A stretch of 64,000 nt of DNA from Octopus vulgaris (taxonomy: Eukaryota): positions 58,900,001 through 58,964,000 of the forward strand of contig OX597830.1 in the NCBI GenBank assembly GCA_951406725.2, in the 5' to 3' direction. Each line of letters begins with the position of its first letter. Within the stretch, counting starts at the first letter, position 1. A program made the translations under genes and the position numbers. The notes below the pieces were generated by a model, which worked only from the letters and a program-made list of their open reading frames with translations, was not told the DNA's origin and ran no database searches. Positions 9,766 through 61,100 of the stretch are shown piece by piece.

Positions 9766-10773
9766 AGGCTTTCTTCAAAACATACACGGAAAATCTGTTT
9801 TTACTCCAAATTGCATTCTGCACGTAAGCCTGGTCGCATGATGACACTCTGTACTCGACCCCAAAATGGGTTCACCTCCGTTGAAGATGTAGTATATATT
9901 GAGGAAGTTGCAAATAGGTTCTGTACGACTTTCGATGAGTTCTGTACGAAAGAAAAGGATGAAAGACTAGGTTCTTTTCACACAAGAGAGTTTGAGCGAT
10001 CTGGTGAGGCAATTAGAACCGTCAAGAGACGAAGTAGAAATTCCTAACTCTTTCTGGACAGAAAGACACTTTACGTGAAGAAAATGAAGTAATGAGTTGC
10101 TGTCGAAAGCGAAATTTTGATTCAACAATTCATTTCAAAGTGGATGGTCTCCGCTCCTAGTAACTATGATAATGATCGTTTTGCAAGTTTATTTCAAGGT
10201 CACGCTATAAGCAACTTAAAACTAAACAGTCATCAGCATGAAATTTAAAAAAATGTTTTATTGCATTAAGAAAATTAAAAACTGTTTAAGCTCATCGCTT
10301 ATTTGCTATATTTAAATGAATTTTCTATGAACGTGAGGCGCTTTTTATTTCAATATAACGAGCTTCAATAGAATCTCTGAGGTTATCTTAACCCTGTTAG
10401 GTGCAACGTCTTTGCTGGATTCCTAGTAAAATGGTAATGGAACAACAAACATAAACAAATAGCTTCTACCGATTCTGTCCATTAGTTTGTCTGGAATCGT
10501 TATTCTTGAACTGTATATACAACTATTTATCTTTCTGCTCAGAAGCCAAGTGGAAGGTAGAGTTAGACACCGAGTCCTAGATCTGAGAGGGTTAAAATAA
10601 TTATTACGCTAATGAGCATGTAAAGAGGATTCACTAATCACTGATGCTTTCCATGTCTGTGGGACAGCCATAGGAATTATTACAGAATAGAGAGACCAAC
10701 CGACTCATCATATATGAAGAATTAACATTCAATGAGTTCCCTTGCTGGATATGATGAAAATATTCTTATTATT

Positions 10774-11172
10774 GAAATAATACATTTCTAAATCTCTCAG
10801 CGACATTTATGCAGTAGCAGCACGATAACATGATAGTATGTGGTCAACTTAATGTGGCAGTCCCATGAAAGGGAAGAATGCTACTGTTATTTAGCCCCAT
10901 GAAACATCGTTTCCTGTTGGCCATGACACATTTTCTGTGTCCTTATGTTTTCAAAGTGGAGATAAGGACCTCCACCCAGCAGAGCCAGCATCTAGAGACT
11001 AGATTCAGAGTCATTGCTCATTATCAGTCTGGAGTAGCATGGCTTGCTACCTGGAGATGCTTGTTCTTCCCTTTCATCGGACTGTCACATTAAGTTGACA
11101 ACATACCATCATTCTATCGTGCTGCTACTGCATAAATCTCTCTGAGAAATTTAGAAATGTATTATTTCTATT
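10774..11172 (-). mobile_element. Fold-back element (~105 bp inverted arms) with internal hammerhead motif
   Basis: AATAATACATTTCTAAAT...ATGAAAGGGAAGAA (10777-10878) is the reverse complement of TTCTTCCCTTTCAT...TTTAGAAATGTATTATT (11064-11167). Confidence 0.85.
10991..11033 (-). ncRNA. Minimal type I hammerhead motif, mutated paralogue of 13285-13327
   Basis: Minus strand reads TCCAGA-CTGATAA-TGAG[CAATGA]CTCT-GAAT-CTAG-TC-TCTAGA. Confidence 0.7.
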
Positions 11173-11224
11173 TTCGAAATCAGTGAATATATATATTTCA
11201 AGTGAATGTATTTCACTTGAAATA

Positions 11225-13264
11225 TATATGTTTTCAAAGGTGAATAGGCATCGACAGCTACGAAGCCACGCCTTTTTGTTGTTTTTGGGGAGTGGTCTAG
11301 CCGAATTGTTTTTTTGTTTTTTTTATTTTGCAAAGCCGCCATTGTTGGGTGGTAGTGAAACAATTGAAAAAATGAAGAGTTACGCGGAAGCTACTGGAGG
11401 TCGAGATGCTGTAGACCCACGTATGCTGAAGCCGATGAGCATGGAGCGGAATGAAGGGAAGATAGCAAAATAATATGGCATGATAAAAAAAAGAAGGGTC
11501 AAACATAAAAACGATCCTGCCTGAGGAGGAAAAAAGAAAAATGGAAAGCAGGAAGGTGATATTTAGAACATTTTCGAGTGAAAATAGGAGAATAGAACAC
11601 GCGTCGCATGAAGAGAGAGGAAATCTTGAAGGAACGAATGGGTAAAGGGATAACTTTCTTTACAAGAGGAAGGAAATACGCGACTATAATAGTAACCTTT
11701 GCATCAGAAGAGGAGGCGAAAATGAATGACAAGAGACTGATACTGGGAGAGAAGTGGACGTTGATGCCGAACTGTTTGGGCAAAAGAATCGTCAGGGTCA
11801 GGGTGGGAAGAATCCTACCGCCGATAGACCCCGAATTGGTAATAGTCGCAATTTTTAATTCAGAGCTGGTGAAGGGAAGTGAAAGCCTGGAGATTTGCAT
11901 AGTAAGCAGAACTCAACAATTGAATTGATGGGGGCATGGTATTGAAGTAATTTGCGCGGTAAGGCCAGAATATTACTACGAAATGGTGGAAACTGTGGAA
12001 TTACCAAACGGTTAAAGATTGGAAGTAATGTTGGAGGAGGGACCCCCAAAAGGTTACGGATACGGTGAAAGAGGGTACCTGAGAAGGGAATGACCTAGAG
12101 CAGCAGTAGAAATGGTGGAAGAGAGTTTCAGGGAGATATAGTGGTGGAAAAAAAGCAGAAGCTGAGAACAGAATATGATGGGAATTTGGCGGAGGTAAAA
12201 CCCAGGAAAAGAGAGAGAGAAGAAAGTCACCGATGACAGTGGAAGTGAAGAAGTGTGAAGGATTGGATGAAGAAACTCAGCCCATGACGAGAAACAGAAA
12301 GTGGAAGTAACAGCAAAGGAATTAAGAGGAAAGAGTCGTGCAAACCAGAAACAAGACAACCCAGAATTACGGAAACCTAAAGACATAGGCACACAAACGA
12401 AACACGTAGAGTTGCAGTCAAACGAACACACAGACGCACAAATACGAGAACACACAGACACACCAATACACGAACACACAGACTTAGAGACGGAAATACA
12501 AGAACCTATAAAACAGCAGGAAAACAGGAGCAAAAAGAGACAACATGAAAAGCACAAACGAAAAGAAAATTATAGTGAGATAGGACGGCGAGCTGGCAGA
12601 ATCGTTAGCACGCCGGGCGAGATGTGTAGCCGTATTTCGTCTGTCGTTACGTTCCGAGTTCAAATTCCGCCGAGGTCGACTTTGCCTTTCATCCTTTCGG
12701 GGTCGATAAATTAAGTACCAGTTACGCACTGGGGTCGATATAATCGACTTAATCCGTTTGCCTGTCCTTTTTTGTCCCCTCTGTGTTTAACCCCTTGTGG
12801 GTAGTAAAGAAATATATAGTGAGATAGGACACCCCAACTTAAAAGGAGTGTAAAATTGAAAGACAGTGTGAGAGATAGAAGTGGCAAGTCATTATAATTT
12901 TGTAAAGACTGTAACTGAGAGAAATGATTGTTTGAACTTTTTAGGAAAAAAAAAGGAAAAAATAATGTAAATTTTGAAACTGTTAAATGAACAGGTTTCC
13001 TAAAGTTTTTTGAAACATTTGGTTCTCTTTTAATTTAAAAAAAAGGAAAAAAAATAAGTAAGGACTGTATGAACATTGGTTTAAAAGGTTTGTAATGTAG
13101 GGTAAAAGCGAAGAGGGAAGTCGCGGTTTCGCCTCGGAGCGATGCTAAAGGTTGAGTAAAAGTTAATTGTAAATATATTCATATCACATTCATCCTTCAT
13201 ATGTTTTATGTTCCCGCATGTCTTTGTATGTCCCATTTGTAATTAGGCCCTGTAATAAAGAATC
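11225..13264 (+). mobile_element. Tx1/L1-clade-like element carrying only a decayed ORF1 (gag-like)
   Basis: ORF pieces MKSYAEATGG, FFTRGRKYATIIVTFASEE and a decayed zinc knuckle (PKGYGYGERGYLRRE*). Homologous to ORF1 at 39.98-40.92 kb (TRGRKFATVEVRFASE). AT-rich 3' region ends at AATAAA (~13254); no RT is seen. Confidence 0.7.
12584..12814 (+). mobile_element. Full-length CORE-SINE inserted in the ORF1 element
   Basis: Complete head, CORE domain and tail; target-site duplication TATAGTGAGATAG on both sides. Confidence 0.92.
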
Positions 13265-13490
13265 AAGCTAGCAAGCCGTGCTACTCCAGACTGATGAGGA
13301 GCAATGACTCTGAAACTAGTCTCTGGATGCTGGCTTTGCTGGGTGGAGGTCCTTATCTCCACTTTGAAAATGCAAGGACACAAGAAATGTGTCAAGGCCA
13401 ACAGAAAATGGTGTTTCTTAGGGCTAAATAGCAGTAACATTCTTCCCTTTCATGGGACTGTCACATTAAGTTGACAACATACTATCACTA
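13265..13490 (+). mobile_element. Second copy of the hammerhead-bearing unit (one arm), inverted relative to 10833-11050
   Basis: About 220 bp of clear reverse-complement identity to 10833-11050. Confidence 0.85.
13285..13327 (+). ncRNA. Minimal type I hammerhead ribozyme with intact core
   Basis: TCCAGA-CTGATGA-GGAG[CAATGA]CTCT-GAAA-CTAG-TC^TCTGGA. Perfect 6-bp stem I, consensus CUGAUGA/GAAA core, GUC cleavage triplet (cut after 13321) and palindromic stem III ACUAGU. Confidence 0.88.
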
Positions 13491-13669
13491 TACTCTTATT
13501 ATCCTTTCACATTAATCTTTGTTTAATGAAGATATGTGCCAGGGTCATTGTGAAAAAAACAAACAAATTAAAGCGGATTCTATTTGACTTTAGAAGTATT
13601 TAAATACTACAAAAATTAAAGGGATTTTTTTAAAGACCTTCAAATTCAAGAGATATTAAAAGGTAAAAC

Positions 13670-23711: not shown

Positions 23712-23757
23712 AACACAACGTTTCGGCTGATATACCCTCCAGTCTTCATCAGGTGTC
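23712..23757 (-). ncRNA. Minimal hammerhead motif, left arm
   Basis: GACAC-CTGATGA-A-GACTG[GAGGGTATAT]CAGCC-GAAACGTT-GTGTT; stem I GACAC/GTGTT, stem III palindromic ACGT. Confidence 0.7.
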
Positions 23758-23810: not shown

Positions 23811-23856
23811 GAAACCTGATGAAGGCTGGAGGGTATATCGGCCGAAACGTTGTGTT
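23811..23856 (+). ncRNA. Minimal hammerhead motif, right arm
   Basis: GAAAC-CTGATGA-A-GGCTG[GAGGGTATAT]CGGCC-GAAACGTT-GTGTT. Confidence 0.7.
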
Positions 23857-51384: not shown

Positions 51385-52698
51385 TTACGGCTGTAAAGAT
51401 CAACTAATGATCAATAAAGCCATAACTGAAGACAGCCGCAGAAAGAAGAAAGGCCTCAGTATGGCGTGGATCGACTACCGAAAGGCTTTTAATAGAATTC
51501 CCCACACGTGGATCCCCGAAACACTAGCCATGAACAAGGTAGCACTAATAATTATAAAATGCATAAGGCACTATATGAATTAATGGCAGACAGTGCTACA
51601 GCTCCAAACAAAAGAACTCGTGAAAACCAAAGCCATCCCCATTAGAAGAGGAATGTTCCAGGGAGACACGCTCTCTCCACTTCTTTTCTGCTTGGCACTG
51701 ACACCTTTATCTGATATGCTACATAGAACTGGATGCGGATATAAATGTTACGGCAAAACAATAATCAGCTACCTCTTATATATAGATGATCTAAAAATAT
51801 ACGCTATTAATGGTAAACAGCTGGAAACACTATTAAAGACAGTTCATGGATTTACCAAAGAAATAGATATGAAATTTGGATTAGCAAAATGTGCCAAAGC
51901 AACCTTGAAAAGAGGGAAACTAGTTAAAAGTAGCAACATCGCACTAGATAAAGCCAATGAAATAAGAGAATTAGACCAAAGTCAGACATACAAATATTTA
52001 GGAATCCATGAATTAGATATGATACAACACACACAAATGAAAGAGAAAATAAAGAAAGAATACTATAGACGAATTAGTTCAATACCAAAAACAGTGCTCA
52101 ATGCAAAAAGCAAGATAATAGGTATTAACACTTTAGCCGTCCCAGTTATAAGTTACAGCTACAATATCCTTAACTGGACATTAAATGAACTAACCAAAAT
52201 AGATGGGAAAACAAGAAAAATAATGACAGGATCTAGGATGCACCACCCAAAATCTGACATAGAAAGGCTATATATACAACGTATAGAATATGGTATAGGC
52301 CTTATACAGCTAGAAAACTTATAAAATAACCACCGTAGGACTGCAAAAATATCTACTTCAGAAGTAAGGAAAACTAATACAAATAGCCACAAAACACGAG
52401 CAAAACAAAAAACTGCTTTCAGTATTTAAGGAAGCTGGCAAATACAAACAAGAAGTCATACTACCTAACAAATATGAAGAAGAAGAGGAATCAACAAAAG
52501 CTATAAAACAAATGAAATCCAAACTAAAAATAGAACAGCAACGAACCATGATAAAACGATGGCAAGAAAAGCCCCTTCGTGGTAAATACTGGACTAAACT
52601 AAATGCAAAAGAAATAGAGAGAGAAAAATCCCAGCAATGGTTGAGAAGCTCAGGACTCAAAGCAGACACTGAAGGATTTTTAATTGCAGCACAAGACC
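51385..52698 (+). mobile_element. Internal RT fragment of family V (close paralogue of 59.75-61.2 kb)
   Basis: GCKDQLMINKAI...WIDYRKAF...RRGMFQGDTLSPLLFC...LYIDDLK. Confidence 0.92.
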
Positions 52699-58127: not shown

Positions 58128-61100
58128 GTCTCCTTGTCGTTCAGAAAATGACGACAGTCAAAATAATGGGCCGGACGTTGTTCCTCATGTCCCGCAAATA
58201 AAACCGAAAAGACATAAATGGACACGTGAGGAATACATTTCTATCCTACACGTTTACTTTACAGCAGTGCTCTACCCAAAGAATGAATATACAACAACAC
58301 ATACATACAAAATATGGAAGAAAAATAACATAAATAAAGACCTTGATACAACAATGAACCCTAATAAACTAGCAAATATACGGAGATATATTCTCAACGC
58401 AAAAAAAAAATATCAGAAATAGAAATAGAACATTTAAAAGAAAAAATACATCAGGAAAATGTAGATAGAAGCCACACAACAATGCCCAAATAATATAAAC
58501 ACTGAAACAGTAAAACACGAAGACAAACGTAACATTTCCAACAAACACGATGTAAACAAAAAACAACAAACCCAGACCGTAAGGATACATAATAATACAT
58601 GACAAACAGTAAGCCAAAACACGACAAACAAACATACGGATAAGAGATAGAAAGCGACACAAATCTAAAATCTGAAAACAACGAAGAGGAGCCTAATGAT
58701 TATGAAACTATGAAAAGTAGAATAATCAAAGAACTGAAAACCACAGAGCTCAAAATGGACCACCGACCATACCTCCCAAAAATCAAAATAGACGAAACAA
58801 CAACACCAATTATAAACAGCATAAACCTAGCCGTCACGGAACTAATAGCCACTGAAACAAAAAGCGATATCACTGAGCTAAATGACTCAGTATACGCAGC
58901 AGCCACTGCAGCCACAAAAGAAGCTGGATACTCACTCAAACCCATCCAAACAGGAGTACCACCACCCAAACAGACCCTGTGGATAAATAACATCCAAAAC
59001 AAAATACAAAAAATGAGAAAAGATCTGTCGATTCTTAATGAAATCAGTAGACAATCAACGCTACTGAGTAACAAAAAGAAAACAAAAATACTCCGCAAAT
59101 ACAACACTACAGAAAAAGATTTATCTGATATAAAAGAAATGCTAAAGCAAGATATCCTTGCCAAAGCACAAAGGATCCGCCGGTACGAGAAACGCCAACG
59201 TTTCTTTGAACAAAACAAAAAGTTCAACTCCAACCCCAAAAAGTTCTACCAAGAACTTGGCAAAAATAAAATAGAAATCACTGCAGCACCAACGGCAGAA
59301 GTGGAAGAATTCTGGAGAGAAATATGGTCGGCGAACGAACAACCAAATAAAGGAGTATTAAAACAACAAACTCAGCATCTGAGCAACTTTGGACACCCAT
59401 AACAACTGAAGAGGTCACTCAGGCACTGCAAAGACTAAGCAACTGGAAGGCACCTGGGCATGACAAGATCCCCAACTTCTGGTTGATATATCTAACAGGA
59501 ATGCACAAAAAGCTGGCTGAAAATTTTAACAACATACTGGCAGAGCCAGAGACAATGCCTGAATGGCTCACGAAGGGGAAAATCATCTTAATTCCCAAAT
59601 CAAATGAGACAGCAAAACCAGAAAACTACAGACCAAAAACCTGTCTCCCTACAATGTACAAGGCATTTACTGCAGTGATATCGCAAAGGTTGAACAAGCA
59701 CCTGGACGAAAACAACCTGTTTCCAGAAGAGCAGAAAGGATGCTGCAAAGGCTCATATGGCTGTAAATATCAACTAATGATTAATAAAGCCATAACTGAA
59801 GACAGCCACAGAAAGAAGAAAGGCCTCAGTATGGCCTGGATTGACTACAAAAAGGCGTTTGATAGCATCCCCCACACATGGATCCTCGAAACACTAGCCA
59901 TTAACAAAGTTGCACCAACAATTATAAAATACATAGGACACTCTATGAATAAATGGCAAACAGTGCTACAGCTCCAAACAAAAGAGGGACTCATGAAAAC
60001 CAAAGACATCCCCATTAGAAGAGGAATATTCCAGGGAGATACGCTCTCTCCACTCCTTTTCTGCTTGGCACTGTCACCTCTATCTGATATGCTAAATAGA
60101 ACTGGATGCGGATATAAATGTTACGGCAAAACGATCAGCCACCTTTTATATATGGATGACCTAAAACTATACGCTGCAAATGACAAACAGCTGGAAACAC
60201 TATTAAAGACAGTTCATGGATTTACCAAAGAAATAGATATGAAATTTGGATTTAAAAAATGCGCCAAAGTAACCTTGAAAAGAGGAAAACTAGTTAAGAG
60301 TAGTAACATCACACTAGATAAAACCAATGAAATAAAAGAATTAGACCAAAGCCAAACTTACAAATACTTAGGAATCCATGAACTAGATAAGACGCAACAC
60401 ACACAAATGAAAGAGAAAATAAAAAAAGAATATTATAGACGAGTTAGATCAATACTAAAAACAGAGCTCAATGCTAAAAACAAGATAATAGGTATTAACA
60501 CTTTAGCTGTCCCAGCTATAAGTTACAGCTACAATATCCTTAACTGGACACTAAATGAACTGACCAAAATAGATAGGAAAACAAGAAAAATAATGACAGG
60601 ATCTAGGATGCATCACCCAAAATCTGACATAGAAAGACTATATATACAACGTATAGAAGGTGGTAGAGGCCTTATACAGCTAGAAAACTACTATAAAATA
60701 ACTAAAAATATCTACTTCAGAAGGAAGGAAAACTGATACAAATAGCGGCAAAACACGAGTAAAACGAAAAACTGTTCTCAGTATTTAAGGAAGCTGAAAA
60801 ATACAAACAAGAAATCATACCACCTAACAAATATGAAGAAGAAGAAGAAGAAGAACAAGAAGAAGAAGAAGAAGAAGAAGAAGAAGAAGAAGAAGAAGAA
60901 GAAGAAGAAGAAGAAGAAGAAGAAGAAGAAGAAGAAGAAGAAGAAGAAGAAGAAGAAGAAGAAGAAGAAGAAGAAGAAGAAAAAACAACAAAAGCTATAA
61001 AACAAATGAAATCCAAACTAAAACTAGAACAGCAAAGAACCATGATAAAAAAGTTGGCAAGAAAAGCCCCTTCATGGTAAATACTGCACTAAACTAAATG

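Follow-up and report, generated by a model that had tools for sequence, protein, structure and literature searches.

A variant type I hammerhead ribozyme in a dispersed octopus repeat that LINEs and ORF1-only elements enter at a fixed site

Type I hammerhead ribozymes are known by the thousands in animal genomes, and finding one more such motif is in itself ordinary. The canonical metazoan representatives are described as cutting in dimeric form and as carrying a highly conserved G10.1-C11.1 pair (PMC4209133), and for the axolotl hammerhead weak cleavage of the monomer and strong cleavage of the dimer have been reported (PMC7229834). Animal retrozymes are argued to be non-autonomous derivatives of Penelope-like elements (PLEs) (bioRxiv 10.64898/2026.07.22.740005). 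The insertions of PLEs are marked by 5′-truncated partial tandems and inverted 5′ copies (PMC8557442), and two internal starts of reverse transcription are described for these elements (PMC11167929). Among LINEs, Tx1 families that target other repeats and their reliance on a flanking promoter are known, the target-specific members including Tx1 in Tx1D, Keno in U2 and Tx1-Mar in Mariner-N4 (PMC4494074, PMC4640811). The locus described here touches on all of these systems.

We analysed a 64,000 nt stretch of the Octopus vulgaris genome (assembly GCA_951406725.2, contig OX597830.1, positions 58,900,001 to 58,964,000 of the forward strand), termed the window, and coordinates refer to it unless a locus is named. 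On the + strand, positions 13285-13327 carry a type I hammerhead fold of 43 nt. Specifically, the 5′ arm of stem I (13285-13290) pairs at six of six positions with the 3′ arm (13322-13327), the CUGAUGA core begins at 13291, stem II (13298-13311) has four pairs and a 6 nt loop, GAAA lies at 13312-13315, stem III (13315-13320) is a perfect palindrome, and the GUC triplet at 13319-13321 predicts a cut after 13321. The initial annotation had reported a complete set of conserved core nucleotides, a perfect 6 bp stem I and this cleavage site, and all three bear out. The CUGANGA, GAAA and UH elements of canonical type I hammerheads are present together with a 6 bp helix I, the open end lying in stem I, and a short palindromic helix III. 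A strict hammerhead descriptor matched the window once on the + strand and nowhere on the − strand, the mean in 100 first-order Markov simulations being 0.0 matches. Among 30 relatives stem I is paired at a mean of 5.3 of 6 positions, against 3.2 when arms are crossed between copies. Folding predicts a longer stem I with an internal loop (13268-13342), whose 5′ foot is the LINE insertion point considered below. The internal loop and the 6 nt loop 2 are places of possible tertiary contact and may resemble the Schistosoma motif.

Helix I of 6 bp, helix II of 4 bp and the short palindromic helix III are features also described for the canonical type I hammerheads of metazoans and for non-LTR retrozymes (PMC4209133; PMC7229834; bioRxiv 10.64898/2026.07.22.740005). 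In contrast to the closing G10.1-C11.1 of helix II in canonical type I hammerheads, the octopus position is mostly unpaired: it is G-U in the window copy and U-U in 26 of 30 copies of its family (family A), the remaining three stem II pairs being present. With this first pair of stem II not being G-C, the window hammerhead counts as a variant within a known type, and family-A hammerheads may cut poorly. An Rfam search with the window hammerhead returned no hammerhead at the gathering score and none at E values up to 10. The best predicted fold of the monomer is an inactive alternative that buries the core (−10.6 kcal/mol, as against −8.8 for stems I and II; z = −1.08), and a monomeric stem III closed by a 2 nt loop is not a fold that ViennaRNA permits. 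Two stems III paired with one another give a predicted 6 bp duplex of −6.2 kcal/mol. The motif is thus modelled as a type I hammerhead with a short palindromic stem III that is predicted to cut only as a dimer.

The same expectation, drawn in the initial annotation from the self-complementarity of stem III, gains from the comparison of families, in which the palindrome not only recurs but covaries. Across 18 copies from families with an 8 nt stem III, 90% of cells are paired and double changes occur at 10 of 14 pairs, counts that are inflated by kinship among the copies; none of 500 shuffles scored as high, and slid controls drop to 13-44%. For the stem III palindrome in these copies, 94% of cells are paired and three of four pairs show double changes, while pair 10.1-11.1 is unpaired in 12 of the 18. 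A mixed-family alignment, which failed to align stems I and III, was left out of the count. The palindromes of stem III differ among five families, which argues for selection for dimer pairing during the spread of these families. Covariation of the stems and of the palindrome therefore appears to support the dimer model.

Judged from copies elsewhere in the genome, the hammerhead belongs to a dispersed non-coding repeat of about 368 nt and not to the ORF1-only element that neighbours it. A search of the 2.8 Gb genome with 230 nt around the ribozyme gave 2711 first-look candidates, of which 40 were scored and 30 loci, 89-93% alike, were fetched; these loci are top matches and not random copies. 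Exact matches to the core number 151, and the reversed control gave 0. In the 29 loci other than the window, the sequence before the ribozyme is of the host type seen at window 11060-11270 in 23, an element end in 4 and not anchored in 2. The unit closes on itself at about 368 nt, since sequence past its 3′ end loops back into the sequence that precedes the hammerhead, and it holds no ORF. Copies are 5′-truncated partial tandems with an inverted copy at the 5′ side in 19 of the 29 other loci, and their 3′ ends, counted from the cut, fall at +166 to +171 in 13 loci, at +219 to +236 in 14 and elsewhere in 2.

The window insertion has the same anatomy. Its 3′ part (13266-13492, +) ends about 168 nt past the cut, at one of the two usual family ends, and its 5′ part (11064-11268, +) makes it a partial tandem, with 11064-11111 repeating 13440-13487. 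An inverted, 5′-truncated copy lies at 10771-11055 (−) and shows 90% identity across 225 nt; G8 and A15.1 are lost from its hammerhead (about 11033-10991, −). The intact core of the window copy is no sign of selection on that copy, because 27 of 30 family copies, picked by likeness to the query, keep theirs. Contigs from four sequencing runs of guessed kind cover the repeat, although such contigs carry no strand, end or locus information.

The partial tandem, the inverted 5′ copy, the hammerhead within the repeat and the two alternative 3′ ends, which amount to an optional tail and match the two internal starts of reverse transcription, are all features described for PLEs (PMC8557442; PMC11167929), and the repeat was likely copied by Penelope-like enzymes. 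It differs from the described PLEs in having no ORF, in a tail of about 60 nt as opposed to 30-40, and in that no autonomous partner was found. The likeness to non-LTR retrozymes lies in a non-coding unit with a type I hammerhead, within the 170-400 nt size range of these elements, and in the dimer model (PMC4209133; PMC7229834; bioRxiv 10.64898/2026.07.22.740005). Unlike retrozymes as described in these sources, the octopus copies are dispersed 1.x-mers with inverted 5′ copies and not tandem arrays, and the unit holds an snRNA-type promoter motif. None of the 30 loci is a tandem array of two or more hammerhead units, and no head-to-tail intact cores at unit spacing occur among the 100 matches listed of the 151. 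The repeat works like a retrozyme but is not filed as one, because no tandem arrangement was found among these copies.

The search for an autonomous PLE carrying the host repeat covered a 778-aa family, Neptune-like GIY-YIG loci and loci with hammerhead pairs, and found none. The 778-aa family and the Neptune-like loci were rejected since they have no terminal repeat resembling the host repeat, and no such repeat was present in 60 GIY-YIG loci of other families, which were the top candidates. Of three same-strand hammerhead pairs 1.6-2.8 kb apart, one was due to a second insert of ORF1-only type, one to a segmental repeat and one to stacked elements. Among the GIY-YIG loci, such as L142 and L234, are at least two Penelope-like families that are young and high in copy number, their open frames measuring 778 and 781 aa; a pattern search found no canonical hammerhead in the flanks of these.

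Between the two parts of the host repeat in the window lies an ORF1-only (half-LINE) element (11269-13265, +) without an ORF2 match. Its ORF1, from 11372 on the + strand, is broken by stops and frameshifts and retains a zinc-knuckle remnant near 12050-12100. The element is flanked by copies of a target-site duplication of about 13 bp, a degraded 5′ copy (11256-11268, +) matching the 3′ copy (13266-13278, +) at 10 of 13 letters; the latter marks the predicted +1 of the snRNA-type promoter of the host. A short, high-copy, SINE-like repeat (12586-12814) sits within the element between 15 bp duplications (12571-12585 and 12815-12829). The AATAAA of the element (13254-13259, +) is followed about 6 nt later by its end, without a poly(A) tail. 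The initial annotation placed the ribozyme about 30 nt downstream of this signal, a fair estimate given the 25 nt that separate AATAAA from stem I. By these boundaries the ribozyme is not a 3′ part of the ORF1-only element: the element is, on the sequence, a later and decayed insert into the repeat of the ribozyme itself. The window copy is most likely an inert fossil.

The element belongs to a multi-copy family of 1.67-1.80 kb bounded by duplications; an ORF2 match is absent from the window copy and from 13 others of 1.67-1.80 kb, and a Pfam search with the ORF1-only protein returned no family. Identity between its ORF1 and the ORF1 of complete LINEs is about 25%; these LINEs have an ORF2 with APE, RT and zf-RVT domains, share a similar 3′ end with the ORF1-only family and stack at the same site. 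This partner LINE looks Tx1-type, a label drawn from domains, target habit and motifs and not from a tree with named clades. The ORF1-only family resembles HAL1 (half-L1; PMC5753468) as a multi-copy element of about 1.7 kb with ORF1 and no RT, and differs in that its apparently Tx1-type partner is site-specific and only distantly similar in ORF1.

Several related loci depart from the simple arrangement. A second ORF1-only family, with an ORF1 about 29-34% identical to the others, occupies L298:1384-3357 (+) and lies between two family-A hammerheads of the same sense, 1627 nt from one to the other. Its 5′ side holds the ribozyme and about 100 nt, a duplication far longer than usual, and L011 has a similar 3′ end. 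L084:2420-2840 is a 5′-truncated chimera in which a piece of LINE ORF2 is fused to the 3′ end typical of the ORF1-only family, and it has the family-A duplication. At the 5′ junction of L164, what comes after a C-type duplication is a remnant resembling a B-type target, as if the element bore at its 5′ end the first part of a previous host.

We scored the landing of elements, in sets of top matches and not of random copies, by a strict test, in which a core with at most one mismatch lies 36-39 nt after the AATAAA of the element, with duplicates removed, and by a looser one; the background was 1 of 655 for the strict and 33 of 655 for the loose test. In the ORF1-only set, a strict core follows in 23 of 38 ends (26 by the looser test), 11 ends show the target duplication and then other sequence, mostly another element, and 1 is of another kind; 4 ends without a signal were set aside, and a few ends of this set belong to complete LINEs. 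When complete LINEs were picked by a mid-ORF2 match, a choice blind to flanks, 17 of 31 ends had a strict and 24 a loose core, 3 were stacked and 4 were other (4 of 37 loci gave no end and 2 ends had no signal). Complete LINEs picked by their 3′ end gave a strict core in 7 of 23 and a loose one in 8, with 6 ends showing the duplication and then other sequence and 9 others, most of them accounted for by one sub-lineage that lands mostly elsewhere. With 24 of 31 flanks in hammerhead repeats by the looser test, the partner LINE, with APE and RT in its ORF2, is target-specific in the sense of more than 20% of flanks lying in one repeat type (PMC4494074).

The landing base is a single, fixed position lying 25 nt before the core, and the hosts are about ten related hammerhead-repeat families that are 65-76% alike in pairwise matches. 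Target duplications measure 13-22 bp where cleanly found, both flanks show host-specific variants in several but not all copies, and 91 of 92 element junctions are without a poly(A) tail, the single A-run being target sequence. Target-specific Tx1-clade LINEs likewise combine APE and RT domains with a fixed site in a different repeat, and they too show duplications, stack in tandem and have non-autonomous passengers (PMC4494074; PMC4640811). What sets the octopus LINEs apart from those described is the choice of targets: about ten diverged families of hammerhead repeat and a U2 start, tied together by the distance to a promoter motif.

Insertions into these hosts were independent, since the elements are far more alike than the repeats that hold them: likeness among 12 E-type elements is 97.6% and among their hosts 85%, and for 8 F-type elements the values are 98.1% and 90-92%. 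Sister LINE lineages that are 95% alike keep to the different host families E and F and differ at 6 endonuclease residues, and in the tree this young lineage splits by host, with F on one branch (99/95). Hosts B, C and D are intermixed among older LINE lineages and among the ORF1-only copies. On the ORF1-only tree, copies in host A cluster, and copies in B, C and D, hosts with the first ~9 letters in common, are intermingled (3 changes, against 9.6 when shuffled). Loci L166, L170 and L206 show a sister sub-lineage that inserts at a fixed site of another repeat, one without a hammerhead or PSE-like motif.

The motif ATCAG(T/C)(G/C) occurs at −57 to −61 in 19 of 19 U1 and 15 of 17 U2 promoters. 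Of 20 other hammerhead hosts, 18 have it at −54 to −60 as counted from the landing base; the hosts were hand-picked, and 2 of 25 were not anchorable. The background is 0.2%, and two sites of a target without a hammerhead do not have the motif. An earlier reading of the upstream motif as a covarying hairpin was dropped, as the U1/U2 comparison explains it better as a promoter element. At L263:1-1500, a LINE 83% identical to the hammerhead-targeting family abuts with its 3′ end the +1 of a U2 gene. From the 7-letter motif and its spacing, the landing base is likely the start of an snRNA-type promoter of the repeat. In the window this PSE-like motif (11179-11186, +) stands at −77 and not within −54 to −60 because of an internal duplication. 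Newt satellite 2 likewise has an snRNA-type promoter motif inside its unit.

Two alternatives concern what the repeat and its inserts are. That element and ribozyme repeat spread as one composite, through a single insertion with hitch-hiking or as a protein-coding retrozyme, might be read from the few loci bracketed by two same-sense hammerheads (L298, L300). Hitch-hiking is contradicted by the identities of elements and hosts given above, and the composite is further opposed by host-specific variants in both duplication copies, by the occupation of five host families by one ORF1-only lineage and by 5′-truncated LINE copies at the same site (L002, L084); we hold it to be very improbable. Somewhat less remote, though still improbable, is that the repeat represents an orphaned terminal repeat from an autonomous PLE and not a self-standing non-autonomous family. 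The PLE insertion anatomy would suit this origin, and most PLE hammerheads are described as single motifs of truncated copies (PMC4209133), but the 368 nt unit closes on itself without an ORF and no PLE ORF lies directly upstream of the repeat in any locus examined.

Two others concern how the site is chosen. The endonuclease could have ordinary specificity for a short motif common to related hosts, the match to a transcription start being a by-product, a possibility that we take seriously but consider rather less than even. The homology of the hosts and the CTAGC or ATC that several share at the site fit it, as do the six residues that separate the E and F lineages, one of which lies in the loop before the ID motif, a specificity loop. 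Sites E, F, A and U2, however, share little beyond 3 letters and all keep the promoter-motif distance, and a motif of 3-5 letters alone cannot yield 17 of 31 in 2.8 Gb. A role of the hammerhead in the service of the LINEs, in which RNA running past AATAAA would be cleaved by the ribozyme and its 3′ tail, derived from the host, would pair with the next target and thereby select it, is unlikely in our estimate. It would draw on the shared strand and fixed spacing, on junctions without poly(A), which fit priming on read-through RNA, on the loyalty of the close sister lineages to E and F, on the mixing of ORF1-only copies only among hosts with common first letters, and on the statement that co-transcription with the target strengthens specificity (PMC4494074). 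Against this, element ends never fall at the cut, relatives at the U2 start and in hammerhead-free repeats imply that the ribozyme can be dispensed with, a lone insertion offers no second hammerhead in cis as a partner, and pairing by a read-through tail would need no cleavage. At the window locus, moreover, an RNA started upstream would pair with the inverted copy (−378 kcal/mol).

We therefore favour as probable the reading of a dimer-cutting type I hammerhead in a Penelope-copied repeat of about 368 nt, into which a half-LINE later inserted at the likely promoter start. In an intact repeat, transcription would start at the landing base, two hammerheads would pair their palindromic stems III and then cut, and the unit-length RNA would be copied by a Penelope-type RT starting inside the RNA, which would place the ends at +168 or about +228. 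Insertion at +1 by Tx1-type LINEs, and by the ORF1-only elements that depend on them, would give these elements the host promoter and leave the ribozyme whole on their 3′ side. A bolder version is doubtful: LINEs and dependants would colonise snRNA-type starts, take the host promoter at 5′ and the hammerhead at 3′, and let a host-derived RNA tail pick the target, so that switching would need almost no endonuclease change. The suggestion of the initial annotation that read-through transcripts could be cut at this ribozyme holds as a possibility in principle, but it is unlikely at the window locus because of the single + strand hammerhead, the dead inverted partner able to pair, the displaced promoter motif and the broken element.

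Other parts of the window carry further motifs of this kind. Hammerhead-core-like motifs of another family form an inverted pair at 23721-23752 (−) and 23816-23847 (+). Two copies of a CUGAAGA...GAAA motif (51426-51444 and 59796-59814, +) lie directly past AATAAA and near long ORF fragments of another retroelement family.

In titles and abstract openings we found no published account of hammerhead repeats as targets of Tx1 elements; such families may already be on record in Repbase reports, in subscription papers or in supplements. The targeting of hammerhead repeats by LINEs appears to be a new form of Tx1 target specificity. One repeat here links a retrozyme-like unit, an snRNA-type promoter motif and Penelope-type integration. 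The candidates for what chooses the target of site-specific LINEs are the enzyme, the promoter complex and the RNA of the element itself, and sister LINEs that differ at six endonuclease residues and use hosts about 75% alike offer a direct test of target choice and switching.
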